Shown one piece after another: positions 1,070 to 62,197 of a stretch of DNA of 64,000 bases. The notes below the pieces were generated by a model. It was not told the DNA's origin and made no database searches. It was given only the letters and a program-made list of their open reading frames with translations. Numbering within the stretch: the first letter of the stretch is position 1; each line of letters begins with the position of its first letter. Position numbers and translations under genes: made by a program. Origin of the DNA: a virus; IMG/VR virus record IMGVR_UViG_3300046463_000247, positions 1 to 64,000 of that record; one strand, given 5' to 3'.

Positions 1070-1104
1070 TTCGTTCGGGGTAATTGCAATTGATTGCAGG
1101 ACGC

Positions 1105-1305
1105 TCACCAGTTTCCCCCGGCAGTTTCTGCGGACCCGAAACAGCACGGGCCGCAGAGATCGGTCGGGTACACGGTCGGCGTGCACTCGCAGTTCATGCA
1201 CGGCGTGTCCCAGTTCTTGTCGCCGTGCTTCAGATTCGGAATAGGCTTCGCGATGTGCGGCACCGGGGCCATGTTCTTCAGCTTGTTGCCATAAGGGTCG
1301 CTCAT
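1105..1305 (-). CDS. small Cys-rich protein
   Basis: 66 aa, CxxCxC...CGPCC; ATGA overlap with upstream gene. Confidence 0.6.
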   Translation of the reverse strand: MSDPYGNKLKNMAPVPHIAKPIPNLKHGDKNWDTPCMNCECTPTVYPTDLCGPCCFGSAETAGGNW

Positions 1306-1781
1306 TGCACTACGCTCCGCTTCAGGCTGAACGGCGGCACGTAGCGGCGATAGAAGCTACGGCTGCTCAGGTACGCGTCCATGTCGAATGTGCGCGGGTT
1401 GATGTACTGGGCCAGTTCCGGGTTGGCCGCGATCATGCGCCGCTCCACCGCAGCGAAATCCACGCCCATTTCCAGCGGCATCATCGCCGCGTCGCCGTAT
1501 CGTTGTCCGCCGTACACGGAGAAGAACGAGGACCACTGGCCCATCGCACGGTTGCCCGCCTCGGCCTGCTCGTGGAAGTTGGTCACGCGACCGGTCGGCG
1601 ACAGGCCCTTGTCGAACAGCCGCTTCACCAGCGGGTTGGCCTTCGGCAGGTTATTGATGGTCGGGTTGTACAGGTCGAGGAAGTTCGCGGTCTTCCCGAC
1701 TTTGCGCTGCTCTTCGGTCACGTCTTCCGGGCGGACGCCAAACAGGCGGGCGGCGGTGTCGCGGTGCAGGTCTTGGGTCAT
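1302..1781 (-). CDS. small protein carrying family A DNA polymerase motif fragments
   Basis: DLHRDTAARLFG...VTEEQRKVGKTANF, then PTGRVT and DFAAVERR; ATG 1781 overlaps the upstream stop. Confidence 0.65.
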   Translation of the reverse strand: MTQDLHRDTAARLFGVRPEDVTEEQRKVGKTANFLDLYNPTINNLPKANPLVKRLFDKGLSPTGRVTNFHEQAEAGNRAMGQWSSFFSVYGGQRYGDAAMMPLEMGVDFAAVERRMIAANPELAQYINPRTFDMDAYLSSRSFYRRYVPPFSLKRSVVQ

Positions 1782-2074
1782 AGTGAGGTGTGCAGTCCGG
1801 TTGCTTCGGTAAACAGGGCGGGCAGGTGGTCGCCGTACACGTCGGCGTGAGTGCCCTTCAGCGTCGCGGTGGCCTTGTGGATGCCGTAAAACTCCACGGT
1901 GTACAGGTCGTTGGGCTGAAGCATCACCCGGACCTTGCGGATGCCGTTGGTGCGCGGGATGCTGAACTGGAGCCCGGCGTCCAGCGCCAGGAAGTTTCTG
2001 GCCCCGGTCATTGCTGCGAACCGGCGTCCACCGAACTGCCGGAGAATCGTCTCCGCGCGCTGCTTTTTGTCCAT
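1778..2074 (-). CDS. phage hypothetical protein
   Basis: 98 aa; AAGGAG RBS and promoter directly upstream. Confidence 0.8.
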   Translation of the reverse strand: MDKKQRAETILRQFGGRRFAAMTGARNFLALDAGLQFSIPRTNGIRKVRVMLQPNDLYTVEFYGIHKATATLKGTHADVYGDHLPALFTEATGLHTSL

Positions 2075-2119
2075 GTCGTCGCACTCCTTGCGGTTGACAC
2101 TGGGTTAGTCGATGAAAGT

Positions 2120-2148
2120 ATTGTCGCTAAACATCTGCGGATTGTCAA
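2120..2148 (-). promoter_or_regulatory. sigma70-type promoter
   Basis: TTGACA-N17-GACAAT. Confidence 0.7.
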
Positions 2149-2170
2149 ACACATTTGCAATCAATTGCAG

Positions 2171-3529
2171 CTACCCGAACAGGGTAGTCGCCGCGTGGCA
2201 GACGTTGCACAGCGTCACGTTCACCGTCCACGCCTGCCCGTCTACCGGGGACTCATATTGCAGGTGGTAGGCGTGCCGGGTCCGGTGCTCGACCGTCAGC
2301 GCGTCTACCGACACATTGGCAAGGGACGGCTTGTACCACGGGACGGGGTTATTCGAGTAGGCCATAACAGTTTCCCCGGGCGACGCCTCGACGGCGTAGC
2401 TGCACCCGCCGTTTGCACAGAAGCACTTCTGAACGTGCCCCAACCTCTTGAGGAAGTCCTGGTACGGGATGATGTGGCCTGTGTCGTAATGCAGCGTATG
2501 GGGCAGGTTCTTGTCGATCCCGTAGGCATAGAAGCATGTCTGGCAGAGGAACGCGTCCACGGGCTGTCCAAGCGTGGTTCCGGTCACCTTGTAACGCTTA
2601 AGCGACTCTGATTTGGTCAGGTAGACCGAGTACTCGCTATCCACCGTGTACTCGGGCAACGCCCTCCGCAGCGTGACCGGCTTGAACAGGCGGCACTGCT
2701 CGTTGTAGCAGAAGTGGTGCGGGTGCGTGAATGACACCTTCTTGCCAGGCGTGTCCGCCAGCGCCTTCGCGGGCACCGCGCCGGTCAACTCGTGGCTGGT
2801 TTTCAGTGCCGCCAAAAGTTTCTCCTTGTCCACGCTGATCGCGACCTTCAGTTCGCCTTGGAGTTTCGGATCGGGCTGCATGTAGTGCGTCGTGCCGGTC
2901 CCATGCGTCTGGTGCATCGGGGCGACTAGGTGCTTCTCACGACGGACAATCACCAGCCACACCAGGTTGTACTGGTCGTATTCGGCATCGGTCGCGCCTG
3001 CGTCGAGCCACACCTGCACCGTTGGGGGCACTATCAGTGCCTCGTTCACCACCTCTCGCGGGACCCTCAGAAGCGTGTAATGGGCGTTTCCGCTTGGGTT
3101 AGGCCCGGCCAGCATGGTCGTCGTCTCCCTGAACCAGTAGGACAGCCATGCCGCCGTCAGTGCCGTGCGCGGGTCCTCCGAGGTCAGCGAGACGCGTGGC
3201 GACCACCCTACCGTGACCTGATTCAGCGTCGGCGTGGGAGCGAAATACAGCGTGCACTCAGGCGTCTTATCCGCAGGATTCATCCACCATTCGGTCTTCA
3301 GGGCACCGCATTGCTGCCACAGGCTTGCCCAGTCGGTCTCGGTGTAGTGCTGCGCTTTATTCGCGTCGATTAGCCACGACGGGAGTTGCTTGGGCTGAAT
3401 AGACAGGCCGATACGATCCATGTGCGGGATGTACTTGCCGTTGATGTGCGCATGGTGGGCGACGAACAGCGCGAGGTACTGCGCGAACTGGCTGCTTGAA
3501 TTGGTGTTGACCAGCGGTTTTAACGGCAC
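2171..3529 (-). CDS. hypothetical protein with Cys/His clusters
   Basis: ~450 aa ORF; GTG 3529 follows AAGGAG; several Cys pairs in the C-terminal half. Confidence 0.7.
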   Translation of the reverse strand: MPLKPLVNTNSSSQFAQYLALFVAHHAHINGKYIPHMDRIGLSIQPKQLPSWLIDANKAQHYTETDWASLWQQCGALKTEWWMNPADKTPECTLYFAPTPTLNQVTVGWSPRVSLTSEDPRTALTAAWLSYWFRETTTMLAGPNPSGNAHYTLLRVPREVVNEALIVPPTVQVWLDAGATDAEYDQYNLVWLVIVRREKHLVAPMHQTHGTGTTHYMQPDPKLQGELKVAISVDKEKLLAALKTSHELTGAVPAKALADTPGKKVSFTHPHHFCYNEQCRLFKPVTLRRALPEYTVDSEYSVYLTKSESLKRYKVTGTTLGQPVDAFLCQTCFYAYGIDKNLPHTLHYDTGHIIPYQDFLKRLGHVQKCFCANGGCSYAVEASPGETVMAYSNNPVPWYKPSLANVSVDALTVEHRTRHAYHLQYESPVDGQAWTVNVTLCNVCHAATTLFG

Positions 3530-3592: not shown

Positions 3593-3595
3593 ACA

Positions 3596-5161
3596 TTAGC
3601 TGAGGTCCCGGCCCAGATACTTGCCGAATACCTCGCGGGCGCGTACCGCCAGCCCCATGCGCGAACCGTCCTTGTACGGCAGGTCGAATTCGAGGTCAAT
3701 GGCCTCCTTCAGCAGCCGGTCGGGCACGCGGCGCGCGTGACGGCATTCCGCGTAGCAGTTCGCCTCTGCCGCCTTGACTTCGACCTTGGCGAAGAACACG
3801 TCCAGCATCTTCTTCAGTTCCTCTGGCTCGAAGAACTTCTGGGCCTTGAAGAAGCGCGTGTCGTTGCCCAGCGTCACGTTCGGCTCGGCGTTGTTGACGC
3901 GCAGGTGGTTGCCGATCTTGAAGCCCTGAAGCGTCTTGGCGTGCTGGGTGCCGATGAACACGCCCGTCGAGTACCGCGACATCGCCGCGAGGATCGTCAG
4001 GTAGGCCATGCGGTCTTCGTGGTGCGGGATCGAGTTCAGCACGAAGCTGCTGATGATGCTGTCCGGCCCGCTTCCCGCGTCCGCCAGCGCCTCCAGACGG
4101 TCCAGGTAGGCACTGATCAGCGCCCGGCTCGCGTTCGGGTCCACGTCGGTCGTCTCGGGCGGGCTGTAGTACGGCTCGAACGGGGTGCAGTCGAACCCGG
4201 CTTCCCGCATCATCGTCGCGTCGTGCAGCGTGCCCGCGCCCATGTCGAAGATCACCTTGCCGTAGCGCCGCGCGAACGCCGCGCGTGAGTCCTCGTTGTT
4301 GGTCGGCAGCAGCGCAAGGTCGGAATTGACGTTGCCGTCGATCACCTGCTTCGTGTTCATCGTGTTGCTGATGATCCGGCCATAGACGAAGTACGGGTAG
4401 GTGCGCGACAGCCCGTGAATCTGCGCCTGCACCGACTTGCGGCGAAACGCGTTGAAGCGCAGTTCTTCGCGGAAATGGGACTGGATGTCGAAGTCCATCG
4501 CGAGGAAGTTCAGCGCCATGTAGGCGAAGTCCGCCGCCGCTTCGGGCACCTCCACCACGTCGAGCATGTCCACGCCCTTGCCGTAGTAGCCGTGCGCGCG
4601 GCCCGCACCGTTCAGCAGCCGGTTGCCGCAGACCACGAGGGGCATGTAGACCCGCGCGTCCACCAGCGCCCCGCCACCGGCCCTCACGTTCTCCGTCACG
4701 TCAGGACCCGCCATCCCCACGGCCTCCTGTGCCGACATCGTGCGCAGCGCGTCGATGCACGGGTAGTAGGTGTCGGGCTCGATGTCCGGCAGGTTCGCCG
4801 TCAGGTTGGTGGCCTTCTCCAGGTACTCGGTGAACGCCCGCTTCGCGTCGGTCGCGAACGTGTCCATGTCGTTGGTGCCCTTGTTGAAGAGCACGTTCAG
4901 CCCCTTCTCCTGGTCGTCGGGCACGTCGAGTTCGACCACCGGCACCTTCGTGTAGCCCACCATCTTGGCGGCGGTCGTGCGCTGGTGGCCCGACAGGATC
5001 ACGCCGTTCTTGTTGACGAAGATCGGCAGCACGAAGCCAAGCTTGCGCAGCGAGATCGCGACCTGCTGTAGCCGCTCCGGCACCATCTTGCGGGGGTTGT
5101 ACTCCGCGCCGTGGAACGTGCTGATGTCCCGCAGCACGACCGGGTTGCTTGCGTGCTTCAT
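3596..5161 (-). CDS. ParB/Srx N-terminal domain fused to SAM-dependent methyltransferase-like domain
   Basis: YNPRKM...ILSGHQR (ParB-like); IFDMGAG (SAM-binding motif I) and SSFVLNSI; start ATG 5161 overlaps the upstream stop. Confidence 0.75.
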   Translation of the reverse strand: MKHASNPVVLRDISTFHGAEYNPRKMVPERLQQVAISLRKLGFVLPIFVNKNGVILSGHQRTTAAKMVGYTKVPVVELDVPDDQEKGLNVLFNKGTNDMDTFATDAKRAFTEYLEKATNLTANLPDIEPDTYYPCIDALRTMSAQEAVGMAGPDVTENVRAGGGALVDARVYMPLVVCGNRLLNGAGRAHGYYGKGVDMLDVVEVPEAAADFAYMALNFLAMDFDIQSHFREELRFNAFRRKSVQAQIHGLSRTYPYFVYGRIISNTMNTKQVIDGNVNSDLALLPTNNEDSRAAFARRYGKVIFDMGAGTLHDATMMREAGFDCTPFEPYYSPPETTDVDPNASRALISAYLDRLEALADAGSGPDSIISSFVLNSIPHHEDRMAYLTILAAMSRYSTGVFIGTQHAKTLQGFKIGNHLRVNNAEPNVTLGNDTRFFKAQKFFEPEELKKMLDVFFAKVEVKAAEANCYAECRHARRVPDRLLKEAIDLEFDLPYKDGSRMGLAVRAREVFGKYLGRDLS

Positions 5162-5880
5162 TCTGCCGTGCCCCCCGGCTGGGCGACCGGCTGCTGCGCG
5201 TTTGCAATTGATTGCAGCGACTCGGCAGACGGCCCGCCGATGGTCGAGACGGTGAAGCCCAGACGGCGTGCGATTTCGTTCACCAGGTCGGCGCGGCGCG
5301 GAAAGTCCTTCAGCAGGCTTGCTTCCCACTGCTTGTAGTCGTTCACGTGCACCTTGAACTTGTACAGGCCGATGTTCAGCACGATATGCTCGCGGCTGAT
5401 GACCTGCTTATTGCTCGCCACCGATCCGCACACCGCCTCGTAGCTGAGGTCCTTCAGGCAGTCCGCGTCAATCTGGCCGCACAGGCAGTCCAGTTCTTCC
5501 TTGCTGAAGCCGGTCGATTCGAGGTCGAAGCCCAGTTCGCCCAGCAGCCGCAGTTCTTCCGACAGCTTCGATTCGTCCCACTTCGCGTTCTCCGACACGC
5601 GGTTATCGGCGAGGCGGAACGCCTTGATCTGCGCGTCGCTCAGGTGGTCCGCCGTGATGGTAGCGACTTCCGTCAGACCCAGTTCCGTGCTGGCGCGGTA
5701 GCGCGTGTGGCCGGTGACGATCACGCCGTCCTTGTCCACCACAATCGGCACGAGGAAGCCGAAGTCCTCAATTGACTTCTTCACGCCCGCCACGGCTTCG
5801 TCGTTCACGCGCGGGTTGTTCCAGTACGGCTTGACCTCGCCCAGCGCGCGATAGACGATTGCGATCTTGTTCTGTTCCAT
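5158..5880 (-). CDS. ParB/Srx-domain protein
   Basis: PYWNNPR..FGFLVPIVVD..IVTGHTR..AFRLADNR. Confidence 0.85.
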   Translation of the reverse strand: MEQNKIAIVYRALGEVKPYWNNPRVNDEAVAGVKKSIEDFGFLVPIVVDKDGVIVTGHTRYRASTELGLTEVATITADHLSDAQIKAFRLADNRVSENAKWDESKLSEELRLLGELGFDLESTGFSKEELDCLCGQIDADCLKDLSYEAVCGSVASNKQVISREHIVLNIGLYKFKVHVNDYKQWEASLLKDFPRRADLVNEIARRLGFTVSTIGGPSAESLQSIANAQQPVAQPGGTAE

Positions 5881-5895
5881 GCGTTACCCCTTGAG

Positions 5896-7092
5896 TTATT
5901 CGAGCCCGGCCATCGTGGCGCGGATGTTGTCGTCCTGCAAAATCGGGTTCTCCAGGCGAATCTTGCCGATGCCCGCGCCCGTGTAGAAGCCCACCTTCTT
6001 CGCCTTGTCATGCCAGCTTCCGCCCGACACGTAGCGGTCGAGCAGCGCATAGTACAGCGGCTTGCTGGTCTCGACCGGCGTCACTTCCAGACTCAGGCCC
6101 AGCAGGAATTCGAGCACGTCGCGGTTCACGAACAGGTCGGTCGTGCGCAGCGGCTGGAACACCTTGTAGACCATCAGGTTGTTCGGCAGCGTGTATAGCT
6201 GGTGATCAATCCGGTACTTCGACCACTTCTGCGAGGTCGGGTAGTCCTCGGCCTTCAGGAACTTGCCGGTCGTCATGATGTCGTTGCCCAGCACCACGTC
6301 GGCGAGGTCGGCGGCAGCGATCCACTCGGCCCCGATGCCCTCGGCGAAGCGCGCGACCACGCGGTTGCACATGCCCATCAGCACGTTGCTGTAGTCCGTC
6401 ATTTCAATATGGGCCAGCGTCTCGGCCAGCAGCGATTGCAGGCCCTCGTCGTCGCCCGGGAGCGGCAGGAAGTGGTACTCCAGACCCAGTTGCTCGGCGT
6501 ACTTGCGCGCGTAGCTGGGATCGAAGTCTTCCTCGGTGCGGCCCACGCAGACGCACACCTGGTCGATGCCCGCGTGCTTGAGCGCCAGCGCGGTTAGCAG
6601 ACCGTCGGTGCCGCCGCTGATGGTCGTGACGACCTTCTTGCCGCGCAGGAACTCGGCAGCGCCCACCAGCCGTTTCAGAAGCTCCGATGCGGCCTCGTCC
6701 ATCGGCATCTTCCAGTTCGGTTCGGGCTTGATGATGTCGAGCACGTAGCGGCGCAGGCCCTTGGCCGACAGGTGGTAGCCGACGCCTTCCTTGCAGCGCA
6801 CGATGTCCTTGATCTTGAAGCCGTTCGCCTGGACGAATGCCTTGATCGACGTGTAGGACTGGGAGAAGTGTAGTTCGCCTTCCCGGTGCACGTAGTACAG
6901 CGGGATCATGCCGGGGGCGGACTGGTACAGGTAGCAGGCGCGCGGCCCGCCGTATGCCTTGAAGGCGACGCCGCCAATCGGGGCGATCAGGCCCGCGCCG
7001 AAGTTGCGTTGCTCGCGGATCGCGGAGTCGTGCTCTTCGTAGTGGAAGGACTGCGGGTCAGAAACCGACCACGACTGAACGGTTTTTAGCAT
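5896..7092 (-). CDS. asparagine synthase-like PP-loop ATPase/amide ligase
   Basis: Degenerate AsnB N-domain (PLYY...FSQS), PP-loop ISGGTDG, DPSYARKYAEQLGLEYH. Confidence 0.7.
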   Translation of the reverse strand: MLKTVQSWSVSDPQSFHYEEHDSAIREQRNFGAGLIAPIGGVAFKAYGGPRACYLYQSAPGMIPLYYVHREGELHFSQSYTSIKAFVQANGFKIKDIVRCKEGVGYHLSAKGLRRYVLDIIKPEPNWKMPMDEAASELLKRLVGAAEFLRGKKVVTTISGGTDGLLTALALKHAGIDQVCVCVGRTEEDFDPSYARKYAEQLGLEYHFLPLPGDDEGLQSLLAETLAHIEMTDYSNVLMGMCNRVVARFAEGIGAEWIAAADLADVVLGNDIMTTGKFLKAEDYPTSQKWSKYRIDHQLYTLPNNLMVYKVFQPLRTTDLFVNRDVLEFLLGLSLEVTPVETSKPLYYALLDRYVSGGSWHDKAKKVGFYTGAGIGKIRLENPILQDDNIRATMAGLE

Positions 7093-7151: not shown

Positions 7152-7175
7152 CTTTTTGCAATTGATTGCAGCGGG

Positions 7176-9407: not shown

Positions 9408-9997
9408 TACGACCTCCAGAGCGGTTCGTACTTGGGGACTTCACGTTCGGTGATGCGCGGGCGGATCAGTGCGTTATACGGGCCTTCCAGGCGCGCGTAG
9501 CCGGTTTCTGGATCAAACGCATGCACCCTGTACGCGTCGCTCGTGTGCTTGTGCACGAGGTACAGTTCCCGCTGGTCGCCGCTCTTGGCGAAGGCGCTCA
9601 GGGCGTCGAGGATGGTTTCGACTTTTTCGCCGCTGGTTTCGACTTGGCCTTCGATTTGGGCTTGGACTTTCGGGCTGCTGGCTTCGACGGGGACGCCGAC
9701 TTTTTCGCTGCTGGCCTGCGTCCCCGGCTGCTGTGGGGAGCCACCATCGTCCTTGCCCAGACCAGCGGCGAGCGCGAAGGCTTCTTCCTTGGTCAGGCTC
9801 GGTGCGGCCAGTGCATCGCTGACCCCGGTGCCCGGGATGTCCTGCGAGGGTAGCTCGGCCTGCACAGGAGCCGCGCTGACGGGCTCGGGTGTGCTGGCAG
9901 GTGCCTTGGGCTCGGTGGGCTGCTCGGGAGCGGCTGCGGGCGGTGTGGCGGTTGCCGGGGCGGTCTCACCCTCGGGCCGGTGAATTTTTAATGCCAT
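9407..9997 (-). CDS. Pro/Ala-rich hypothetical protein
   Basis: ATG 9997 after AGGAG; low-complexity N-terminus with globular C-terminal ~60 aa. Confidence 0.7.
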   Translation of the reverse strand: MALKIHRPEGETAPATATPPAAAPEQPTEPKAPASTPEPVSAAPVQAELPSQDIPGTGVSDALAAPSLTKEEAFALAAGLGKDDGGSPQQPGTQASSEKVGVPVEASSPKVQAQIEGQVETSGEKVETILDALSAFAKSGDQRELYLVHKHTSDAYRVHAFDPETGYARLEGPYNALIRPRITEREVPKYEPLWRS

Positions 9998-10081
9998 TCT
10001 TCTCACTCCTTGAGAGGCGGATCGTCCGCATAGCACTTATTTTAGCACAATCGGCGTATTGTCTAACGCACTTTGTGGGTT

Positions 10082-10728
10082 AAGACGCTCGGGCGTGACT
10101 CCGAGAGCGCAGGATTCAAACCGGCCTCGCTTGAACCGGGAGGCTTTGCCCTACTTAGGGAGCATCTAGCGGCACAGGCCCTTGCGGGTTACTGGGAGGG
10201 TAAATGGTCTCTTTTTCGGACTGGCTGGTCTGTGGCGTACCCGACATACGAGAGGATTTAGCGCCCTTGTCGCTCTATTCCCCGATCTTTCACGGGCTCT
10301 CACGGCAGTTAGTCCCTGCTGTCACCAGCAGTCACCGCGCTGGCACACCTGCATCGCCACCAGATACCCGACTTACGGGCGTCGTCTTACAGCAGCAGTC
10401 CACCGGTCATAACGCGAGGGATTCAGGGTCGAAGGAACCCCTACCCATATTCTGAAATGAACGCCGTCCGATTTCAGGCGGGCCTCTATTGGTCCCCGGA
10501 CGGCTCTACCCCTGAACTGGACTGCTGGTGTAAGACCTCAGTGAACCGGACAGCACGGGCGCGCAATGCGATGTCCCCGTGACAGGTATTGAGTGGACCC
10601 CGCTGTACGGGGCTGAACACGGGTCGTTATCTGCCACGAAAACTCCCGTCCCACTGGGTTCCTATCCGTTTCACTGAAGCCTTGCAATTGATTGCAAACC
10701 TCAGCCAGCGGGCCGGAGCCCGCCGCAC
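10082..10728 (-). ncRNA. putative large structured non-coding RNA
   Basis: No credible gene; 19-bp stem 10384-10402/10518-10536 with one mismatch, nested helices, minus-strand GNRA loops (GCAA, GUGA); ends approximate. Confidence 0.6.
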
Positions 10729-10734
10729 TGCGTG

Positions 10735-11538
10735 TTACTTTACTGCCTGCTTCACTTCGATGTCCCACTCGGGGAACAGTTCGGCGATCTTCGTCAGGGC
10801 CGCTTCGAAGCCGAGCGTCTTGACCTGCTCTTCGAACGGGACTTCCGTGCCGCCCGTTGCGCCGCCGATCACGCCTGCGAGGTAACCCGCGCAGATGTTT
10901 TCGAGCGCCACGCTGTCAAATTCGGTGCCGGTCTCGGCCTTGGCCTTCGAGAGCGCCGACTTGATCGTGTTCGCCTGGTCGTTCTTCACAGCGAACTTCA
11001 GGCTCACGTTGTCGCTCGTGGTGGACGACGAGGTTTCGCCCGCTTCACCCGTGACCGTGCCCTTCAGCAGCTTCTGGAGTTCCACGACCGTCAGGCCCTC
11101 AGCCTTGGCGACCATTTCGTCCAGGTTCTCCAGCGTCAGGTGTTCGGCGAGGTCCTTGAGCTTGGTCCAGCCGAGGTGGCTGACCTTCTCCCACGGAATC
11201 TGCTTCACAATCAGGTGATCGTAGATGTCAATCAGGTAGCGCGCCTTGCGCGACTTGAAGCCAAACTTCTCTTCGACATACGCGTCGAACGATTCGAAGC
11301 CTTCGAACCACGAGTTGTCCTGGATCAGCTTGAGCACACCGCCCAGCCGCAGGTACGACACTTCGATGGTCTCGTTCAGCTTCTCAGCCTCGCCGAGAGC
11401 CTTGGGCTTCGACATGGACTGGATTTCGGCGGCAGTGTCAAAGAACAGATCGCCGGTCGCGGTCTTGCCCTTGGATTTGGCCTTGCCGACCACGACGGTC
11501 TCGGGCTTCTGTTCTTGCACTTGCTCTGCTGCGCTCAT
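10735..11538 (-). CDS. helical hypothetical protein, possibly DNA-binding
   Basis: 267 aa; strong codon bias; own promoter; FESFDAYVEEKFGFKSRKARYLI HTH-like segment. Confidence 0.75.
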   Translation of the reverse strand: MSAAEQVQEQKPETVVVGKAKSKGKTATGDLFFDTAAEIQSMSKPKALGEAEKLNETIEVSYLRLGGVLKLIQDNSWFEGFESFDAYVEEKFGFKSRKARYLIDIYDHLIVKQIPWEKVSHLGWTKLKDLAEHLTLENLDEMVAKAEGLTVVELQKLLKGTVTGEAGETSSSTTSDNVSLKFAVKNDQANTIKSALSKAKAETGTEFDSVALENICAGYLAGVIGGATGGTEVPFEEQVKTLGFEAALTKIAELFPEWDIEVKQAVK

Positions 11539-11604
11539 GGCTGTGGTCCTTCAGTCGGAATAGTAAACCGGTTACGGGTGTTATTTGGGTGCTGCGTGAG
11601 AATC

Positions 11605-11633
11605 ATAATAAGCACCCGTGCCCGGTTTGTCAA
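11605..11633 (-). promoter_or_regulatory. sigma70-type promoter
   Basis: TTGACA-N17-TATTAT. Confidence 0.75.
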
Positions 11634-11658
11634 ACAGTCTTTGCAATCAATTGCAAAT

Positions 11659-12306
11659 TCACGCGGGAATTACGGGTGCTGTTGCTTCAATCTGCTTCGA
11701 GAATACGGCGCGCACCTCGTCCAGTTCCGCGTCCTTGTCGCGGTTGCGAAGGAGTTCCACGTTGAACGTTCCGGTCTGCATCCGCTCGGTCAGGTGTGCC
11801 ACGTTGGCACCCATCACCTGCGCGGGCGTGGCGTCGGCGAGTGAGCCGCACAGGCCATACAGCAGCGGCCATGCTTCCTCCACCAACCCCTTGATGCGGT
11901 CCAGATCGAACTCCAGTCCCTCGTACGCCACCTTGAAGGCCCGCAGCATCTGCGTGCTGATTGAATCCAGCTTGAGCAGTGCCGCCGTGTTCGTCATTCC
12001 CACCACCTTGAACTTGCGTTTGTTGGCGGGCACGCGAATCTTCACGGTTTTCGATGCAATCGTCAAGGCGTAGATCGCTTCCCCGAGCTTTTCACGCAGT
12101 TGCGGGCGCACAGCCGGGTCGAACTGGAACCCGAGAATGTACTGGGCCAGCACCTCACGGACCTCCCCCATTGCATCGGCGAAGCCGACCAGGCCAAACG
12201 AGAGATTCATGTACTGGGCCTTGCGCGCGACGGTGCGCAGTCCTGCCTTAGCCGGTTTGGCGTTGAGGGTTTTGGCGACGCACCGACGATATGTTGCTGT
12301 GTCCAT
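11659..12306 (-). CDS. MazG-like (degenerate NTP pyrophosphatase fold) protein
   Basis: GFADAMGEV..LREKLGEAIYAL..VMGANVAHLTERM resembles the MazG pattern with acidic residues altered. Confidence 0.5.
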   Translation of the reverse strand: MDTATYRRCVAKTLNAKPAKAGLRTVARKAQYMNLSFGLVGFADAMGEVREVLAQYILGFQFDPAVRPQLREKLGEAIYALTIASKTVKIRVPANKRKFKVVGMTNTAALLKLDSISTQMLRAFKVAYEGLEFDLDRIKGLVEEAWPLLYGLCGSLADATPAQVMGANVAHLTERMQTGTFNVELLRNRDKDAELDEVRAVFSKQIEATAPVIPA

Positions 12307-12884: not shown

Positions 12885-12905
12885 GGTGTGCAATCAATTG
12901 CAAAG

Positions 12906-20172: not shown

Positions 20173-20206
20173 TTAGGCTCCTTGTTGTCAGTTTACCCAC
20201 CCCTTC

Positions 20207-20234
20207 ATTTTACACAAGCATAGGGGTTTGTCAA
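20207..20234 (-). promoter_or_regulatory. sigma70-type promoter
   Basis: TTGACA-N16-TAAAAT. Confidence 0.7.
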
Positions 20235-43233: not shown

Positions 43234-43480
43234 CCTGTACTCCCTGTTCAGCGGCTGCGCGGGCCGTTGCAATCAATTGCAAAGCCAGCACGTCCTTCGT
43301 CTTGTCCAAAATCTCGGATGCCATCACGCCCCGCTGCACGAACTTCCGCCAGTCGAGCCCGCGCTGTTCCGCCCACTGCCTGCCGCCTGAGACACATACC
43401 TTCTGCCCGCCGATGCGCACCATGCGCATGTGCGTCGTGGTGACCAGCACGTCTTCGAGCCCATCCTGAGCCAGTGCCAT
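43217..43480 (-). CDS. small tail assembly protein
   Basis: C..G.RQW..RGLDW..F...G. Confidence 0.7.
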   Translation of the reverse strand: MALAQDGLEDVLVTTTHMRMVRIGGQKVCVSGGRQWAEQRGLDWRKFVQRGVMASEILDKTKDVLALQLIATARAAAEQGVQDGMRV

Positions 43481-51042: not shown

Positions 51043-51423
51043 TTATTCCTTCAGTAATTCATTCAGGGTTTTCACGAAATCCTTGCCTTCCTGCGTGTGC
51101 GCCACCGACCGGTCTATCGTCGCCTGGGTCGCCATCCACGCCTTGCGGCGCGCGAACGCGGCTTTCACGAGGTGATCAATCGTGCGCAGCGAGTAGCCCC
51201 AGATGTCCTGCAACCGGTGCCCCTCACTGGCAAGGAATTCAACACTTTCGACCCATGAGTCCGACAGTTCCTCTACGCGGAGAGCAACGGCTCGGTCGAT
51301 GGCGTCAACGGTGCTGCTTCCTGAGTTGCTGCCTGCGGCTGCTGCTCGATCCTGGCGCTGGCGTTCTTGCCAAGCTGCCGCAGCGCCGCCGTCGCCTCGG
51401 ACAACAACTCTTGGAGCTTTTTT
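51043..51423 (-). CDS. tail assembly chaperone -1 frameshift extension (T)
   Basis: Open -1 frame with LASEGH..IWGYSL; A-AAA-AAG heptamer at 51417-51423. Confidence 0.6.
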   Translation of the reverse strand, partial: KKAPRVVVRGDGGAAAAWQERQRQDRAAAAGSNSGSSTVDAIDRAVALRVEELSDSWVESVEFLASEGHRLQDIWGYSLRTIDHLVKAAFARRKAWMATQATIDRSVAHTQEGKDFVKTLNELLKE

Positions 51424-51749
51424 GCGTCGGGCACCGACAGCTTGTAAATCTTCTGGATTGCAATCAATTGCACGGTGCCGGGCAGGCGCTTGATCACGTC
51501 GAGATCGTCTTCCGCGTCGGTTCCCATCTTGATCACCTGTGCGATGAAGTCCGGCGCGGCCAGCAGGAACTGCGTGTAGTTCGGCTCCTTCTTCTGCGCT
51601 TCGGCGTACAGCGAGACGAACGCGTGCTGGTGGTTCATCATCAGTTCGACAATCTGCAACAGGGACAGTGGGTGCAGGTCGAGCGGGACGCCGGGTGCAA
51701 CTTCGACCGTCTCGGGTTTGGCGAGCAGGTCGGCAATCTTGATACCCAT
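51273..51749 (-). CDS. tail assembly chaperone (G)
   Basis: Between tail tube and tape measure. Confidence 0.75.
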   Translation of the reverse strand: MGIKIADLLAKPETVEVAPGVPLDLHPLSLLQIVELMMNHQHAFVSLYAEAQKKEPNYTQFLLAAPDFIAQVIKMGTDAEDDLDVIKRLPGTVQLIAIQKIYKLSVPDAKKLQELLSEATAALRQLGKNASARIEQQPQAATQEAAPLTPSTEPLLSA

Positions 51750-52952: not shown

Positions 52953-53387
52953 TCAGACCAGTTGAACCGGCACGGACCACCGTTGCAGGTACAGGAGCAC
53001 CGTGTCTTTCTTAGCCGCCTGGGCTTCCACCAGGAACTTCCAGTGCGCCGCCACCGGGGAGCGGCCCTCGCGCATCGCGGCGCGTACGTCGTCCAGCAGG
53101 GCAATCGCGGACGCCTTGTTGTTGTGCCCGGCAAGCTGTTCGATCTTCGTCATGATCACGAGACCGAACACCGCTTCGCACGAGATACCGCGCTGCTCCT
53201 TCGTGTCCACCGACCGCATGCCCTCGTACAGGTAGCAGACCTGCGGAAACGACGTGCCCTTGATCTTGTTCAGCGCTTCGTCGTCATCGAGCACGAACAG
53301 CACGCGCCCCTTCAGAATTGCAATTGATTGCAAACGGGCGTCGATGTCGTCCAGGCACTTCTGGACCAGGTTCTCATTCACTCTCAT
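52953..53387 (-). CDS. tail terminator-like protein
   Basis: Position and size (144 aa). Confidence 0.6.
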   Translation of the reverse strand: MRVNENLVQKCLDDIDARLQSIAILKGRVLFVLDDDEALNKIKGTSFPQVCYLYEGMRSVDTKEQRGISCEAVFGLVIMTKIEQLAGHNNKASAIALLDDVRAAMREGRSPVAAHWKFLVEAQAAKKDTVLLYLQRWSVPVQLV

Positions 53388-53825: not shown

Positions 53826-54722
53826 TCACATTACCGGACGCAGACAGAAGCCCAGCGAGTCGCGCGTGTACGGTGCTGCCACCGCGAGCGCATGCTGGCC
53901 GCTGGCCTGGTAGTTCTTGATCGTGCCGCTCTGCTCGGCCTGCGACAGCCCTGCGGCCATCACGGCGGGTACATAGCCCAGCACTGCCTCCACCAGCCAG
54001 TCCGGCGCGAGGTCGGTCGTCTGGGGCACGGGCGTCGGTTCTGCAATTGATTGCAGCGGCGTGTCGGACGTGCTGATCAGCCGGTCGTACGGGTAGGCGC
54101 TGTCACCGAACAGCGTCACGCCAGGCGAGCCGCCCGCATTGTCGCCCGTGGTGCCCACCAGACCTGTGTCCTGATCGCCGGTAGGCGGCGTGCCACCCGC
54201 CCCCGTACCGCTGCCATCATCCGTAGTGGGAGGCGGCGAATCGGTCGGAGGCGGGTCGCCAGAAGGGTCGCCCGACGGGTCAGGTTGCGGTGTCGGCTCG
54301 GGGATCGGTTCGAAGCCCGCGTTGAACGTCACGCGGATAAAGCGCTCGTTGTACTTCTTGCGCGGGATCGAAACGACGCCTTTCACATAGTCGATATGGA
54401 AGTCCAGCACGGGCACGGGGATCGTGCACCGGTTGTAGTCCGAACCCCAATACACTGCCTCGCTGCCCGGCTTGAGCAGACCAGAACGAAGCCGGAGCCG
54501 GTAGAGACCGGCAGGCTGAACCCCGCTGAAGCTGTCGGAGTCCAGGTAAAACACGTCTTCAAAGTCTTTCGACTGAAGCGTTGAGTCAATCAGCGTGCCG
54601 ATGCGGAGTTGGGCGGCGTCGATGGCGTTCGTGATTGCTTCGTCCACCTCGGGCGCTGCAAGCTCTGAAGAGATTTGCATCCGCGTGCGCACCTGCGCGA
54701 CCGTCACAATACGTGCTGTCAT
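53826..54722 (-). CDS. head-tail adaptor with Pro/Gly-rich insert
   Basis: Position; V.F.AGF followed by a ~100-aa low-complexity insert. Confidence 0.65.
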   Translation of the reverse strand: MTARIVTVAQVRTRMQISSELAAPEVDEAITNAIDAAQLRIGTLIDSTLQSKDFEDVFYLDSDSFSGVQPAGLYRLRLRSGLLKPGSEAVYWGSDYNRCTIPVPVLDFHIDYVKGVVSIPRKKYNERFIRVTFNAGFEPIPEPTPQPDPSGDPSGDPPPTDSPPPTTDDGSGTGAGGTPPTGDQDTGLVGTTGDNAGGSPGVTLFGDSAYPYDRLISTSDTPLQSIAEPTPVPQTTDLAPDWLVEAVLGYVPAVMAAGLSQAEQSGTIKNYQASGQHALAVAAPYTRDSLGFCLRPVM

Positions 54723-55138: not shown

Positions 55139-55204
55139 TTTTCACCTCTCAAACGTGGATTGGAAAGCGCGGCGAATATATGCCGCTGTGCAATTGATTG
55201 CAAG

Positions 55205-58254: not shown

Positions 58255-58300
58255 GACTAGACTCCGTGCAATTGATTGCAGCGGAATCTAGCAGAGAGGA

Positions 58301-58459
58301 TCACTTCGGAACAACGATTTGCTTCGCTTTATCGGCGTCAAAGCTGAGTTTCGCGGCCAGTGCGCGGGTGGCGTCCGGGTCAGGCGGGGGCACGAGCTTC
58401 AGCAGCACCTCGTCGGCTACGTCGTCCTTGCCGTTCTTCGCTCGAAAAGTGGGCTTCAC
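58301..58459 (-). CDS. small hypothetical protein (52 aa)
   Basis: GTG overlaps the upstream TGA; hand-translated MKPTFRAKNGKDDVADEVLLKLVPP.. Confidence 0.5.
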   Translation of the reverse strand: MKPTFRAKNGKDDVADEVLLKLVPPPDPDATRALAAKLSFDADKAKQIVVPK

Positions 58460-60066
58460 AGAATCTCCTTGTACTGCTTGACCGCCGCCTTATCGGACAG
58501 GTCCAGCGTCAGTTCGAGGTCCACGCCGTCCAGCAGAAGCTGGTACAACGGTCGCCCGTCGATCTCGATGGCAAGCGTCATCAGGTCCGCGAGGCCGCGC
58601 ACGCTCGACTGGTTCAGCACCGCCTCCACGAACGCAAGCTGCACCTGGTTCAGCTTTCCTGCAATTGATTGCAACCGGCCACCCGGCTCCATGCCGTCCA
58701 GAATCTGAGCACGCAGCCCGTACCAGTCCGACAGTGACGGCGCGTAGCCCATCGTCGTGTAGGCGGCAATCGACGCGGCGCTGGTCGCGCTGACGACGAT
58801 CTGGTTGAGCCCGCCTGACTGCGCGACGTGCAGGATGCCCGCCTCTACGCGCTTGAAGAAAGGCAGGATCGTGTCCGGCGCGAGCTTCTGGAACTCGATG
58901 TATGACTTGTAGAGCGTGCCGCTGTACGGGTCGATCACGATGGAGGCACCGACCGTGCCGTCGCCGAGCTTGTGCTTGGTCGTGACGGTGATGTCGCCGC
59001 CCGGCGCGATCTTGATCGGCGTCTTGTTGATCAGCGACCCTTCGAGGATGTCGAGCGGCTGCACTCCGGCCACCTCAGCGACGACCGCGACCGGCGACAG
59101 CGGCAGGTACGCATTCCAGTGATCCAGTTGCGCGGTGTCCACCTTCACGCCCAGTTCGGTGAAGGCGTCGGCGTCCACGTGCTGCTTCGGAATCACCTGC
59201 TCTTCTGCCGTGACGACCGGCGCTTGCAGCTTTGGGGCCTGCCCGGTGCGGATCAGGATGGTCCGGCAGTTCGGGTGAAACGGCGGGATCATCAGCCCTT
59301 CCTCGGTCAGTTGCGCCGCCGACATGTCGCGGTAACGCCCCATTGAGGTCTTGTCCTGCTTCGGCCATGGCTGGGCCGCTTTTACCGCGTCCGGTGTATC
59401 GAGCGACAGGATGTGGACGATGGATGCCCGCGCGTCGGCGACGCGGAAGCGCTTGCCATTGATCGCGCGACAAAACTCGGACGTGCGTCCGTCCATGACG
59501 GCGGATAGCTCGTACTCTTCGATGCCCAGCAGTTCGGCTTCTGCGGTGAAGCCCCACGTAGCCAGACGGCTACTATGGAGCGACGAAGCCAGCTTGATCG
59601 TGTCATTCCCTTCCTCTGCGAACGAAACGAAGTCCTTGACGAAGCGTTCGGCCTTCTTGACGGTGCTGTTGGCCTCGACCCAGTTTGCAATTGATTGCAA
59701 CGCGGCCTTCACGACGGCCTGCGAGCCGTTGTACTTCAAGCCCTGCGTGAAGTTGTCGGCGACGGTGTTCAGCAGCGTGTCGAACTTGCCGACCCCGACA
59801 AAGGTCTTGCTCGCGTCGTGCGCGGCGTTCCCGGCCCCATAGACGGCCATCGCCCGCAGCAGGTACTTGATGTACTCGCGGTTTTTCGTCGCCACCGGGG
59901 TCATGTCGATAGCGTGCGCTTCGGTGTAGGCCCCGGCGAGGTCGTTGGCCTTCAGCCTGGCCGCGATAGCCTGGTAGTACGACGCTGCCAGCGGTTGCCA
60001 CGTGCGGCGCAGCCGTTGGGTAAGCGCCGTCTCCAGCGCCAGATAGGTTCGGAAGTCCTGTGCCAT
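58456..60066 (-). CDS. minor head protein (MuF/SPP1 gp7-like) with C-terminal extension
   Basis: D.RTS.FC..NGK and PPFHPNCRT; follows portal. Confidence 0.8.
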   Translation of the reverse strand: MAQDFRTYLALETALTQRLRRTWQPLAASYYQAIAARLKANDLAGAYTEAHAIDMTPVATKNREYIKYLLRAMAVYGAGNAAHDASKTFVGVGKFDTLLNTVADNFTQGLKYNGSQAVVKAALQSIANWVEANSTVKKAERFVKDFVSFAEEGNDTIKLASSLHSSRLATWGFTAEAELLGIEEYELSAVMDGRTSEFCRAINGKRFRVADARASIVHILSLDTPDAVKAAQPWPKQDKTSMGRYRDMSAAQLTEEGLMIPPFHPNCRTILIRTGQAPKLQAPVVTAEEQVIPKQHVDADAFTELGVKVDTAQLDHWNAYLPLSPVAVVAEVAGVQPLDILEGSLINKTPIKIAPGGDITVTTKHKLGDGTVGASIVIDPYSGTLYKSYIEFQKLAPDTILPFFKRVEAGILHVAQSGGLNQIVVSATSAASIAAYTTMGYAPSLSDWYGLRAQILDGMEPGGRLQSIAGKLNQVQLAFVEAVLNQSSVRGLADLMTLAIEIDGRPLYQLLLDGVDLELTLDLSDKAAVKQYKEIL

Positions 60067-61982
60067 CAGTGGACGTGGTTGCACTCTGCGAGGTGGATCA
60101 GGTCCGGCGTGCTGCCGCCGAACGACAGCGCGGCGACCATCGAGTAGAACGCGTGCTTTTCGTCCCCCTCTAGGTCGTCCACCTCGGCCAGCACCTCAGA
60201 CTTCTCGGCGTCCGACAGTTCGTGCTTCAGCGCAATGGTGCCGCGCACGCCCGCGTAGTCCATCGCCAGTTGCAGCAGTTCACCGCCGCCCTTCTTGGCC
60301 TTGCCAGGGGCTTTGCCCGCCGTGGTAGTAGCGGTGGCCGTGTCCTTGCCGTTCGCGGGCGCGGTGGGCTTGCCAGAGGCTTTCGCCGGGGTCGCCGCCT
60401 TGGCCTGGGCCGCAGCGGTGGCCTTGCCCTCGGTCGGGGTCGGCTTGCCGGGGGCCTGGTTGGGCGTGACCGGGTTCTGGCCCGGCACCATCGCCTCGGT
60501 GATCGTCACGCGGTCCGGCGCGGCGTTCGGGTCGTACTTCAGGTTCGTGCCGCTGATCTGGTTCACTTCCTTCACGAAAGTCGCGCCGTCCGACAGGTCC
60601 TTGGCGAGCGTAAGGCCCTTGATCTGGCTGTCCACGTTCTTCAGCGTGATCCCGTTCGACTTCATCAGAATGTCGGTGCAGCCCAGCGCTTTCATGATCG
60701 TGGAATTCATCGTCGCGTCGAACTCCGCACGCTCCGGCTGGAACACCTGCTCTTCGGCGACCATGTAGGCGACCACAGCGGTGGCGTAGTTGTAGTCGGC
60801 AGCACGGCCCGTGAAGAGCGGCGGCAGGCGGAAGCCCGTGCGCACGTGATCCTCAGCGGCCTTATCGTAGTTGGCGAACATGTTGTCGCCACCGGCCTGC
60901 GAGCCGAAGCGCTCGACCTTGACCTGCACCGACCCGGCGCTATCGAGCGTGCCCGACGTGGACTGGGCCTCAACCACGACTGCGCGGTTCTTGCTCTTGT
61001 TCTTGCCGGACAGGTAGTTCCGAAGCTGGTCGCTGGTCGAGCCCGCGAGCGAGCCACCCTGCACGAAGATGATTGCAGGCGGCAGGCCACCCGAATCGAA
61101 GAACTCCAGGTTCTGCTCTTCGGCCTTGCGCGAGCCGACCACAGACGGAAGCTGGTTGATCCAGCGCGGCGTGAAGTAGCTCGATTCCACGTCCGGGTTG
61201 ACGCCGAACATGATCACTTCGGTTGCGCGGTCCTGCGGCTGGACGGGCGCGGTATTGCTTTCCCACTCGCCGGTCTTCTTGTTCAACTGGCGGCTCGCCC
61301 CGAACTCGCGGTAGTAGGTCTGGTTCTTCGAGTAGCGCGTCATGTAGCGCCGTTCGCGGTCCAGCATCGTGATCGGAACATCGACGCCGTTGCGCTCGAC
61401 CGACCGGGTGACCTCGACCGGCTCGTCCAGCTTCACAAGGCGCGTGTGCACCGCCGACAGATGCCGCAGCGCGACGACCTCGCCTTCGAGGTTGCGCAGC
61501 ACTTCGAGGAACGAGTAGCCGACGCTCTCGATCTCGCGGCGCAGCAACCGGCGAATCTGCTGGAAGGTCTTGCCCGGAAAAGGCTCGTTGAAGAACGACT
61601 TGGCGATCTTGAGTTGCTTCGCGTCTGGTTGCTTGGTTTCATCCTTGGCGACGAACTCATGGCCGGTCGAATCGACGTTGACTTCCATCGCCTCGATGCA
61701 CTGGTTCAGGATGTTGTTGCGCGTCGCCAGGCCCATCAGCACCTTCGGCTGGAAGGGCGGGCGCAGCACGACGGCGGACGAACTGCTCGCCGTGAAGTAC
61801 AGACCCGCGAACTCGTCCTCCGGCGCATAGGCGCTATCGGCCAGCACCATATAGGTGTCGCCGCCGATGACCTTCTGGATCGGAGTCAGTTTGGAACTGG
61901 GTTTGGGCTTCGAGGGCGTGCTGGTCGGGCGCGTCGGGTTGCCCGAGTCAGACGTGTCGATGCTGTTCGTTTTGCCTGCCAT
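60066..61982 (-). CDS. portal protein (PBSX family)
   Basis: GY..LEV.RN..G, PRW, FF..GG.P, FRLPP..G..YNYATA. Confidence 0.85.
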   Translation of the reverse strand: MAGKTNSIDTSDSGNPTRPTSTPSKPKPSSKLTPIQKVIGGDTYMVLADSAYAPEDEFAGLYFTASSSSAVVLRPPFQPKVLMGLATRNNILNQCIEAMEVNVDSTGHEFVAKDETKQPDAKQLKIAKSFFNEPFPGKTFQQIRRLLRREIESVGYSFLEVLRNLEGEVVALRHLSAVHTRLVKLDEPVEVTRSVERNGVDVPITMLDRERRYMTRYSKNQTYYREFGASRQLNKKTGEWESNTAPVQPQDRATEVIMFGVNPDVESSYFTPRWINQLPSVVGSRKAEEQNLEFFDSGGLPPAIIFVQGGSLAGSTSDQLRNYLSGKNKSKNRAVVVEAQSTSGTLDSAGSVQVKVERFGSQAGGDNMFANYDKAAEDHVRTGFRLPPLFTGRAADYNYATAVVAYMVAEEQVFQPERAEFDATMNSTIMKALGCTDILMKSNGITLKNVDSQIKGLTLAKDLSDGATFVKEVNQISGTNLKYDPNAAPDRVTITEAMVPGQNPVTPNQAPGKPTPTEGKATAAAQAKAATPAKASGKPTAPANGKDTATATTTAGKAPGKAKKGGGELLQLAMDYAGVRGTIALKHELSDAEKSEVLAEVDDLEGDEKHAFYSMVAALSFGGSTPDLIHLAECNHVH

Positions 61983-62009
61983 TTGCGCCTCTTTACGGAA
62001 GAATGGCGC

Positions 62010-62039
62010 ATTCTACGGTAGCGGCTCGATGGCGAACAA
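62010..62039 (-). promoter_or_regulatory. class II (late-type) promoter
   Basis: TTGTTC-N18-TAGAAT upstream of portal. Confidence 0.55.
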
Positions 62040-62041
62040 GC

Positions 62042-62075
62042 AAAAAAGAGGGGCCACCCGGTACATGAGTGGCCC
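62042..62075 (-). terminator. intrinsic terminator after polymerase gene
   Basis: GGGGCCAC...GTGGCCCC-TCTTTTTT. Confidence 0.75.
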
Positions 62076-62197
62076 CGAAGCATGCCGTGGGCGGGGAGCC
62101 CTGCCGCACAACCAACTGCATTTTGCAATCAATTGCACAACGGTAGAGATTCTACAGGCAGCGGCGGATTCTGCAAACAACCGAAAAGTTCTGGGAA

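Follow-up and report, generated by a model that had tools for sequence, protein, structure and literature searches.

A dense, evenly spaced array of a 14-bp inverted repeat in Delepquintavirus-like phage genomes: candidate operator-like sites for a phage-encoded protein with a predicted KorB-like fold

We have analyzed a 64,000-nucleotide stretch of viral DNA (the window), which is the first 64 kb of the virus record IMGVR_UViG_3300046463_000247, a single contig of 98,045 bp whose complete sequence we refer to as G000, and find that this genome carries 50 exact copies of one 14-bp sequence, TGCAAT(TG/CA)ATTGCA. Selection appears to act on this motif at the DNA level, and it is probable from the sequence comparisons that each copy is a binding site for a protein encoded by the phage itself. 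A fuller interpretation, in which some 50 selected operator-like sites would be read by a phage-encoded dimeric helix-turn-helix (HTH) protein, in a manner similar to KorB and its OB operators, draws additionally on structural models and analogy, and we consider the case for and against it to be evenly balanced; the likeliest such protein is the 267-residue product of the gene at 10735–11538 (minus strand), referred to below as X.

The window contains 28 exact copies, 18 with TG and 10 with CA at the center when read on the plus strand (pattern TGCAATYRATTGCA), in number, orientation and position exactly as a preliminary description of this DNA had reported; the single one-mismatch copy that it placed at 40079 (40079–40092) is likewise present, as TGCAATCAGTTGCA, and its rough chance expectation of about 1e-4 copies per window agrees with that calculated from the measured composition (62.4% GC) under a mononucleotide model. 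None of 100 dinucleotide-preserving shuffles of the window contains a match. Of the 50 copies in complete G000, 33 have TG and 17 have CA on the plus strand, and inexact copies are few: there are two with one mismatch (both TGCAATCAGTTGCA), none with two, and seven with three. The motif is the most frequent 10-, 12- and 14-mer of the genome, which contains 56 CAATTG and 64 TGCAAT hexamers, with 50 being part of the motif, and its flanks show only a weak t/a preference. We considered reading the site as two TTGCAA hexamers 10 bp apart, and dropped this since neither Stenotrophomonas phage DLP5 nor the related contig G001 shares the flanking T/A preference. A restriction site of the MfeI type (CAATTG, one per copy) was also dropped, since the variants with CG or other centers described below do not contain it, and neither the IHF, sigma-54, LacI-family nor FNR-like consensus fits the site, with the count in host DNA (below) also opposing them. 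The RuvC cleavage consensus ATTG sits inside the half-site, and is too short to be informative.

Calling genes by codon usage gives about 130 genes in G000, every one of them on the minus strand, occupying 90% of the DNA and having a third-position GC content of about 86%. Their products indicate a siphophage akin to the Stenotrophomonas phages DLP5, DLP3 and Summit (genus Delepquintavirus), to whose RecA proteins the G000 RecA is about 60% identical, and they include RecA, a Cas4-like exonuclease, RuvC, an SF2 helicase, a DnaG-type primase and DnaB, as well as capsid, portal and Mu-F-like proteins and a lysozyme. One core protein has its closest homologue on a 98.8-kb Burkholderia ubonensis contig, a connection that fits the GC content of G000. 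A search of plasmid and phage collections for DNA nearly identical to the first 20 kb of the window found nothing, and the ends of the contig share only a repeated 60-bp overlap, which contains no copy of the motif. For comparison we used other IMG/VR contigs (G001, G002, G003 and G006), the further genomes G004, G005, G013 and G016, and the phages DLP5, Summit, RcTiptonus, RcZahn, SIO-2, RHph_TM16 and L338C.

This 14-mer also ranks first among the k-mers of DLP5 (26 copies), Summit (26), G001 (39) and G006 (47), and is likewise abundant in G002 (22) and G003 (30) and present in contig fragments. More broadly, each of the 14 complete genomes examined for it contains an excess of the family TGCAA-N4-TTGCA; these comprise Stenotrophomonas, Rhodobacter, Rhizobium and Vibrio phages and metagenomic genomes, in which the variants have an expectation of 0.04–0.11 exact matches per genome. 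The conserved part of the site is the inverted repeat TGCAA...TTGCA, while the four bases inside it are constant in any one genome and differ between lineages; for example, RcTiptonus has TGCAATCGATTGCA or TACAAT... (49 within one mismatch), L338C has TGCAAC-AG/AA-GTTGCA (47), RHph_TM16 has TGCAACATATTGCA, RcZahn has TGCAATYAAYTGCA, G005 has GTGCAATCGATTGCAC, the variant of Vibrio phage SIO-2 is degenerate, and G004, with only 39% GC, has 11 family sites. Two genomes that seemed empty at first, G013 and G016, have 16 and 29 family sites within one mismatch, compared with about 2 expected. The half-site itself is altered in some lineages, as in GGCAAT...ATTGCC, TCCAAT...ATTGGA, TGACAT-TA-ATGTCA and CGCAAT-TG-ATTGCA. 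It is otherwise common to phages of Alpha-, Beta- and Gammaproteobacteria, from Vibrio to Burkholderia, whose core proteins are 25–35% identical.

Paracoccus sp. MKU1 has a 5.4-Mb genome with 49 copies of TGCAA-N4-TTGCA, and 48 of these are found on a single 96-kb phage contig, leaving just one in the approximately 5.3 Mb of host DNA; the preliminary description had pointed to a similar density in host DNA as contrary to its proposal, and in this one host chromosome the array is specific to the phage. Furthermore, RcZahn and RcTiptonus have different centers, though both were isolated on the same R. capsulatus strain (YW1), and the centers of the Rhizobium phages TM16 and L338C also differ from each other. 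The confinement of the sites to the phage contig, the different centers in phages of the same host, and the constancy of the half-site across host classes together argue for a reader that is encoded by the phage. A host global regulator or nucleoid protein might be proposed instead, as an AT-rich site beside promoters could resemble an UP element or a 5-4-5 regulator box such as those bound by FNR; however, the near-absence of the site from Paracoccus host DNA, the use of one half-site in hosts of three proteobacterial classes, and the variation of the center among phages of a single host make this very improbable.

Indications of selection at the DNA level come from the sites within genes, which account for 20 of the 50 copies in G000 and 12 of the 28 in the window. 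Fifteen of these 20 are read in a single frame, encoding (L/V)Q(S/L)IA with codons ending in A or T. Those in the window include 5203–5216 (in 5158–5880; LQSIA), 31775–31788 (in 30398–32731; LQLIA), 43268–43281 (LQLIA), 46728–46741 (in the tape-measure-size gene 46542–51041; LQSIA), 51459–51472 (in 51273–51749; VQLIA), and 54042–54055 (in 53826–54722; LQSIA), the last being in a C-terminal extension that is not present in the orthologues. At several others the codon position is kept between genomes, in orthologues that are about 30–60% identical: those at 53319–53332 (in 52953–53387; LQSIA), 59686–59699 (in the Mu-F-like head gene 58456–60066, where the four genomes compared all have LQ(S/L)IA at that residue) and 70472 (a genome coordinate, beyond the window) are in register in G006, G001 and DLP5, and that at 22391–22404 (in 22172–22771; LQLIA) is in register in G006 and DLP5, G001 having a copy that is displaced. 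The serine/leucine alternations at conserved sites correspond to the center being turned from CA to TG, and at 65459 (beyond the window) the site has the appearance of an insertion of four codons. The Mu-F-like gene contains a further copy at 58660–58673. The use of one frame with A/T-ending codons, in spite of the high third-position GC content, and the retention of codon positions in orthologues suggest that it is the DNA sequence of the motif that is selected. Sites within genes are also concentrated in the last 60 nt (21 of 93 in four genomes, compared with 8 expected; P=3e-5), an example being 27912–27925, in the final codons of 27906–28556 and with a TTGACA 10 nt downstream.

The sites are spaced more evenly than expected by chance. 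The coefficient of variation of the spacing is 0.47–0.68, compared with an expectation of about 0.95 (P<=0.002 in six of seven genomes), and the evenness also holds in G000, G006, G001 and DLP5 against a null model in which sites are drawn from gene ends. When read on the coding strand, the orientation TGCAATCAATTGCA is favored 2:1 overall and approximately 3:1 at intergenic sites, a bias that is consistent in four genomes.

Intergenic DNA constitutes only 10% of G000 and yet contains 30 of its 50 sites, 16 of which lie 0–8 nt past the stop codon of the upstream gene. Since all of the genes are on the minus strand, the earlier claim that nine copies sit just past a stop codon holds for eight of them, which follow the stop of the upstream gene by 1–5 nt: 2156–2169 (1 nt past 2171–3529, with a TTGACA −35 element 7 nt further in the gene direction), 7157–7170 (5 nt, and then a promoter-like TTGGCT-17-TACACT), 11642–11655 (3 nt past 11659–12306), 12889–12902 (3 nt past the Cas4-like exonuclease gene), 20255–20268 (3 nt past a DnaB-like gene, with TTGACA-17-TAAAAT 19 nt downstream), 25168–25181 (2 nt), 28622–28635 (5 nt, and 6 nt upstream of TTGACC) and 36577–36590 (3 nt, and 11 nt ahead of the next start). 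The ninth, at 1085–1098 (TG at the center on the plus strand), is indeed 6 nt past the stop of 1105–1305, but it lies at or in the start of an H-NS-like gene and, according to the choice of start codon, may overlap it. When a gene in G000 is followed by a terminator-like hairpin, the motif lies directly after the T-run of the hairpin, as at 10683–10696 (38 nt past the stop of the X gene), 23427–23440, and 55189–55202 (3′ of the major capsid gene). The remaining intergenic copies in the window are at 15253–15266 (upstream of the RecA gene), 22141–22154, 30310–30323, 58267–58280 and 62124–62137, the last being downstream of a promoter-like TTGCAG-17-TAGAAT.

The frequency of copies directly after stop codons, together with the 2:1 bias on the coding strand, might suggest that the site acts as RNA, forming a hairpin with a 5–6-bp stem and a 4-nt loop that serves in processing or stability of 3′ ends. 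Such hairpins would be weak, however (−3 to −6 kcal/mol, and no better than shuffled sequences in four of six tests), the loop differs from lineage to lineage but the stem shows no covariation, copies occur in either orientation, and those upstream of promoters would often not be transcribed with the downstream gene; we therefore regard an RNA function as highly unlikely.

A second feature of the intergenic sites is their relationship to predicted promoters. A near-consensus promoter is often recognizable downstream of the motif in G000, giving a recurrent order of stop codon, terminator (where there is one), motif, 4–8 nt, TTGACA, 17 nt, and TAnnnT. When sigma-70-like promoter matches are ranked by strength on the coding strand of G000, the top 34 include 12 that begin 5–20 nt downstream of a motif copy, compared with a mean of 0.5 for random placement and zero in a mirrored upstream control; a simple consensus scan shows the same link in G006 (7 of 30) and G001 (7 of 31). 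It is plausible, if somewhat less than likely, that the function of the site includes control of promoters. We note that the G000 promoters form a family with an extended −35 element (tgTTTGACAa or TTTGACTAaacc), a 17-nt spacer and TAnnnT (for example at 2074–2171, 11538–11659 and 20172–20272), and that its ribosome-binding sites occur in a recurrent caAGGAGtg context, CAAGGAGTG being the top 9-mer in several relatives also. L338C (loci L174–L179) has a second abundant word, ATCCTTTGTCAA, in about 20 copies, the reverse complement of which includes TTGACAAAGGAT, probably this phage's promoter family.

Protein X, which had been listed among several possible binders in the preliminary description, is now the best candidate for the reader on the grounds of its predicted fold, its conservation as a core gene, and the site in front of its own gene. 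RecA, the SF2 helicase, the primase, the major capsid protein and X are the only five proteins of G000 to be detected in every one of the 11 other complete genomes compared, and in every genome the X gene comes after those for RecA, the Cas4-exonuclease and RuvC. In 13 of 16 genomes there is a motif copy about 75–120 nt ahead of the start codon of X, and in G000 this copy (11642–11655) is 8 nt upstream of the −35 element of the predicted sigma-70-like promoter of X (TTGACA, 17 nt, TATTAT; 11605–11633, minus strand; a consensus match only). In the AF2 model of X (pLDDT 83) residues 1–24 are disordered and helical structure follows, and the segment from about residue 43 to 165 matches a ParB–parS complex (6s6h, Z 8.1), a KorB–operator complex (1r71, Z 7.2) and 1vz0 (Z 7.1), as well as 8qa8 (Z 6.2), 3mky, 3vwb and 1zx4, the matched proteins including Spo0J, SopB, VirB and P1 ParB. 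X is also predicted to form a homodimer (ipSAE 0.70 compared with 0.00 for the best control; among proteins of known state, 20 of 30 dimers and 1 of 23 monomers attained this mark; agreement between runs was 63% or higher, and partner pLDDT 72 or higher), with the putative recognition helix lying outside the modeled dimer interface.

Comparison of X proteins with the sites in the same genomes provides some clues to possible recognition. The most conserved parts of the family are the HTH, SFxxYVExxFGFxxRKARYLIxIY, and the GW(T/S)K motif that follows it, and both the helix RKARYLIxIY and GW(T/S)K are kept in lineages with the TGCAA half-site, RcTiptonus and TM16 being exceptions as regards the helix. 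Loci L218 and L224, in which the half-sites are GGCAAT and TCCAAT, have altered helices, RTIRYMI and SKAFHLI respectively. This covariation is suggestive but not decisive, since L223, RcTiptonus and TM16 break the pattern, and no simple rule based on a single residue connects the helix with the choice of C or T at position 6 among the inner bases. The X proteins of alphaproteobacterial phages (RcZahn, RHph_TM16, L338C, RcTiptonus and the Paracoccus phage) have an N-terminal extension of 150–200 residues, giving a total of 405–476 aa, and are sometimes annotated as 'ribonuclease E/G family', probably because of low-complexity sequence. On the 3′ side of the X gene there are about 870 nt with no called gene (9866–10734), opening with the terminator-like hairpin and motif copy noted above; the syntenic region in DLP5 and Summit contains small open reading frames and tRNA genes, including a suppressor tRNA.

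Several observations weigh against the identification of X, or against the broader interpretation. X has no sequence match in Pfam, NCBIfam or the PDB, a PDB profile search giving one insignificant match; its sole family match is to a PHROG of unknown function, and the leads from the ESM Atlas are weak (DUF3102, together with a cluster labeled 'DUF1016/ParB HTH' at 0.84). The top Foldseek match is a ParB (6t1f) with an E value of 0.68, the Z scores of 7–8 fall in the range of chance matches for helical proteins, and Raf1, an unrelated helical RuBisCO assembly factor, scores as high against X. There is no ParB_N match at E<=1, and no N-terminal ParB/Srx CTP-binding domain (GxxRxxA box) was recognized. 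In L223 the half-site has changed to TGACAT while the X helix is canonical, and conversely the helix has changed in RcTiptonus and TM16 while TGCAA is kept. G013 and G016 have a canonical helix and yet sparse or degenerate arrays, such that the array need not be dense. All of the core genes share one phylogeny, and X therefore cannot be picked out by co-occurrence alone. At the level of the sites, the orientation bias is not explained by a symmetric dimer, and the same promoter scan finds no link between promoters and the motif in DLP5. Taking these together, and with binding and its effects judged from sequence and models, we think that X is about equally likely to be the reader of the site or not.

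There is moreover a second conserved HTH protein that could be the reader, encoded at 15745–16179 (minus strand; 144 aa). The preliminary description had proposed it as a MerR-like candidate, and the fold is well supported, with a MerR-type winged HTH preceded by a helical hairpin (AF2 pLDDT 94), a Pfam MerR_1 match (E 0.0014) that is below the curated cut-off, and a weak NCBIfam RacA match; we nevertheless rank it second, behind X. If it were the reader it might gather or anchor the genome in the manner of RacA at ram sites, possibly with transcriptional effects. Its top Foldseek matches are RacA–DNA complexes (5i44; 24–26% identity, probability 1.0, root-mean-square deviation 1.7 Å over about 55 residues), VIA-align gives Z scores of 7.9–8.6 to MerR, GlnR and RacA, and a profile hidden Markov model of the protein finds it in 46 of 58 X-bearing loci, in G013, G016, SIO-2 and L338C, and weakly in RcTiptonus. 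The same profile does not detect it in RcZahn, G005 or G004, all of which carry the motif family; only about 3 of 12 residues of its recognition helix are shared between G000 and the L338C and Paracoccus proteins, which have the same TGCAA, whereas the X helix shares 9 of 11 there; and there is no motif copy before its own gene. We judge it unlikely to be the reader.

The other binders suggested previously, H-NS and the ParB proteins, are not borne out, as none has an orthologue in the relatives that carry the same motif. The first (677–1108, minus strand) has an H-NS C-terminal DNA-binding domain (Pfam Histone_HNS, E 8e-9), with the 1085 motif copy at its 5′ end, and no orthologue was found in the relatives compared. 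The others belong to a block at 3596–7092 (minus strand) that is absent from every relative compared, consisting of a ParB_N–methyltransferase fusion (3596–5161), a ParB_N protein (5158–5880) and a 398-aa protein (5896–7092), which could be a DNA-modification or anti-defense module.

Returning to a phage-encoded dimer, of which X is the favored candidate, we propose that it would recognize the palindromic 14-mer at the DNA level, with selection maintaining about 50 evenly spread copies. At roughly a quarter of the sites, 4–8 nt upstream of the −35 elements of strong sigma-70-like promoters including that of X itself, a bound dimer could control initiation, and since these promoters are already close to consensus, repression would be likelier than activation, although the choice between the two is our inference. 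The remaining sites, at gene ends and within genes, might be roadblocks, bridging points or anchoring points that silence or organize an extrachromosomal phage genome. The earlier proposal that a dimeric sequence-specific protein reads a genome-wide array fits this evidence; its suggestion that the protein coats the whole genome is not supported.

The preliminary description had also drawn a parallel with the stoperators of mycobacteriophage L5, at which an immunity repressor bound to many sites blocks elongating RNA polymerase and keeps the prophage silent. There is something to recommend this: many of the sites occupy short gaps between genes and fall inside transcription units, the whole genome being transcribed in one direction, there is an orientation bias at intergenic sites, no cI-type HTH_3 protein was found in G000, and the relatives DLP3 and DLP5 are temperate, with DLP5 carried and recovered as a phagemid (PMC7326821). 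The fit is poor in other respects. The arms are symmetric and both orientations are used (33:17), 40% of the sites are in coding sequence, a quarter are promoter-proximal at a fixed position, and no repressor of the L5 gp71 type was identified. Immunity operators and their specificities diverge fast, and the conservation of the half-site across three proteobacterial classes, in phages as distant as these, thus argues against a classical immunity system. We consider a stoperator function improbable.

A role as an enzyme target is equally improbable in our estimation. The site might be nicked, as in T5 or phiKMV-type phages, be modified in a sequence-specific way, or act as a Chi-like mark of self for the Cas4-exonuclease, helicase and RecA module. 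Even spacing, use of both orientations and near-absence from the host chromosome checked would suit a self-mark, X is beside RecA, the Cas4-exonuclease and RuvC in every genome, a DNA ligase homologue is encoded in relatives, and DLP3 DNA, which withstands 15 restriction enzymes (PMC7326821), must be modified somehow. That resistance, however, covers many unrelated sites and so reflects a global modification; beyond general recombination enzymes, no nuclease or methyltransferase is common to all of the motif-bearing genomes, none being conserved with the site among the proteins found in at least six of the 11 other complete genomes, and the ParB–methyltransferase operon of G000 is absent from its relatives. 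A fixed position by −35 boxes and before the X gene would be unexpected for nicks or Chi, and Chi-type signals are short and asymmetric. We note separately that the window encodes a protein with a dCMP/cytidine deaminase domain (23952–24431, minus strand; E 4e-10), and that relatives additionally encode ThyX-like enzymes, a PPDK-like dikinase, phosphatases and sugar-nucleotide enzymes; together with the restriction resistance of DLP3, the deaminase and the ThyX-like, PPDK-like and sugar-nucleotide enzymes suggest base hypermodification in this phage group. G016, an X-bearing phage genome of 117 kb, has a tandem repeat (loci L253–L258) of about 10 copies of the unit CAAGCAAGCA/CAAGCACAAG.

Among known systems, KorB and its OB sites in the IncP-1 plasmids RK2 and RP4, along with RacA/ram and Noc/NBS, appear by analogy to be closer parallels than the L5 stoperators. 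As in KorB/OB, a palindromic site of 13–14 bp is dispersed on an extrachromosomal replicon of 60–100 kb, with some copies a few base pairs upstream of −35 elements (here predicted from sequence), including that of the regulator's own operon, and others far from promoters; the modeled central domain of X moderately resembles the KorB DNA-binding domain (in 1r71 and 8qa8), and X is a predicted dimer. The OB sites number 12, compared with 50 here, and the resemblance has other limits: no sequence similarity to KorB was found, X is without a recognized ParB N-terminal CTP-binding domain and has a different C-terminal domain, the central dinucleotide of the site is asymmetric, and this is a phage rather than a conjugative plasmid. 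Nor was a partner like ParA or IncC found, the ParA-type ATPase model PF13614, the only one tried, having no match in complete G000 while matching all 14 control genomes. The geometry of motif and predicted −35 element is the same as that of OB at korAp (PMC2680271; PMC5577506).

RacA of Bacillus subtilis and Noc offer the likeness of 14-bp inverted repeats in tens of dispersed copies at which a small HTH protein organizes DNA, and the window does encode a protein with a RacA-like DNA-binding domain; the ram site is reported, in work of Ben-Yehuda et al. and Schumacher et al., to be a 14-bp inverted repeat in about 25 dispersed copies. These systems differ in being chromosomal, tied to sporulation or division and based on GC-rich sites, whereas the sites here are AT-rich, phage-borne, genome-wide and partly promoter-linked. 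The stoperators of cluster A mycobacteriophages (L5 gp71) and the C1 operators of phage P1 share with this array the use of one short site in many copies across a temperate phage genome, often at gene junctions, and presumably a single phage protein as reader; unlike it, they are asymmetric, oriented to transcription, specific to immunity groups and read by another kind of repressor. Phage N15, a linear plasmid-prophage, has palindromic sites for the ParB-family protein SopB scattered among its phage genes as a dispersed centromere, but these number four and come with a full SopA/SopB partition pair, compared with 50 sites and no PF13614 match here. The array would belong with dispersed operator or centromere-like arrays such as these, and is unusual in its density, regular spacing, in-gene sites and clade-wide conservation. 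The motif is not mentioned in the DLP3 paper or the Rhodobacter phage paper, and searches for the exact motif strings found none in the searchable literature.

A broader and more tentative reading, which we think doubtful, is that the array is a clade-wide self barcode, in which the X family would read 15 to 55 evenly spaced sites that are on the phage and not on the host, so as to silence, compact or segregate a 100-kb extrachromosomal genome, with the center and the protein co-evolving such that phages of the same host are kept distinct. If true, it would mean that phage-plasmids recognize themselves genome-wide by a new mechanism, rather than by a copy of KorB, RacA or stoperators.

That one 14-mer is the most frequent word in genomes of about 100 kb from soil, marine and clinical hosts makes this a very sharp regulatory or architectural signal, and one that has been retained within proteins at the same codons while the sequence around it diverged to about 35% identity. 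The motif is a practical marker for recognizing these phages and plasmid-like prophages in assemblies, and as DLP3 has been proposed for therapy there is applied value in knowing its global control circuit. If X is the reader, a core gene of a large phage group that is as yet uncharacterized would gain a function, and with cultured members on Stenotrophomonas, Rhodobacter, Rhizobium and Vibrio, the group would provide a tractable model for how a large extrachromosomal phage genome is silenced, organized or distinguished from the DNA of its host.

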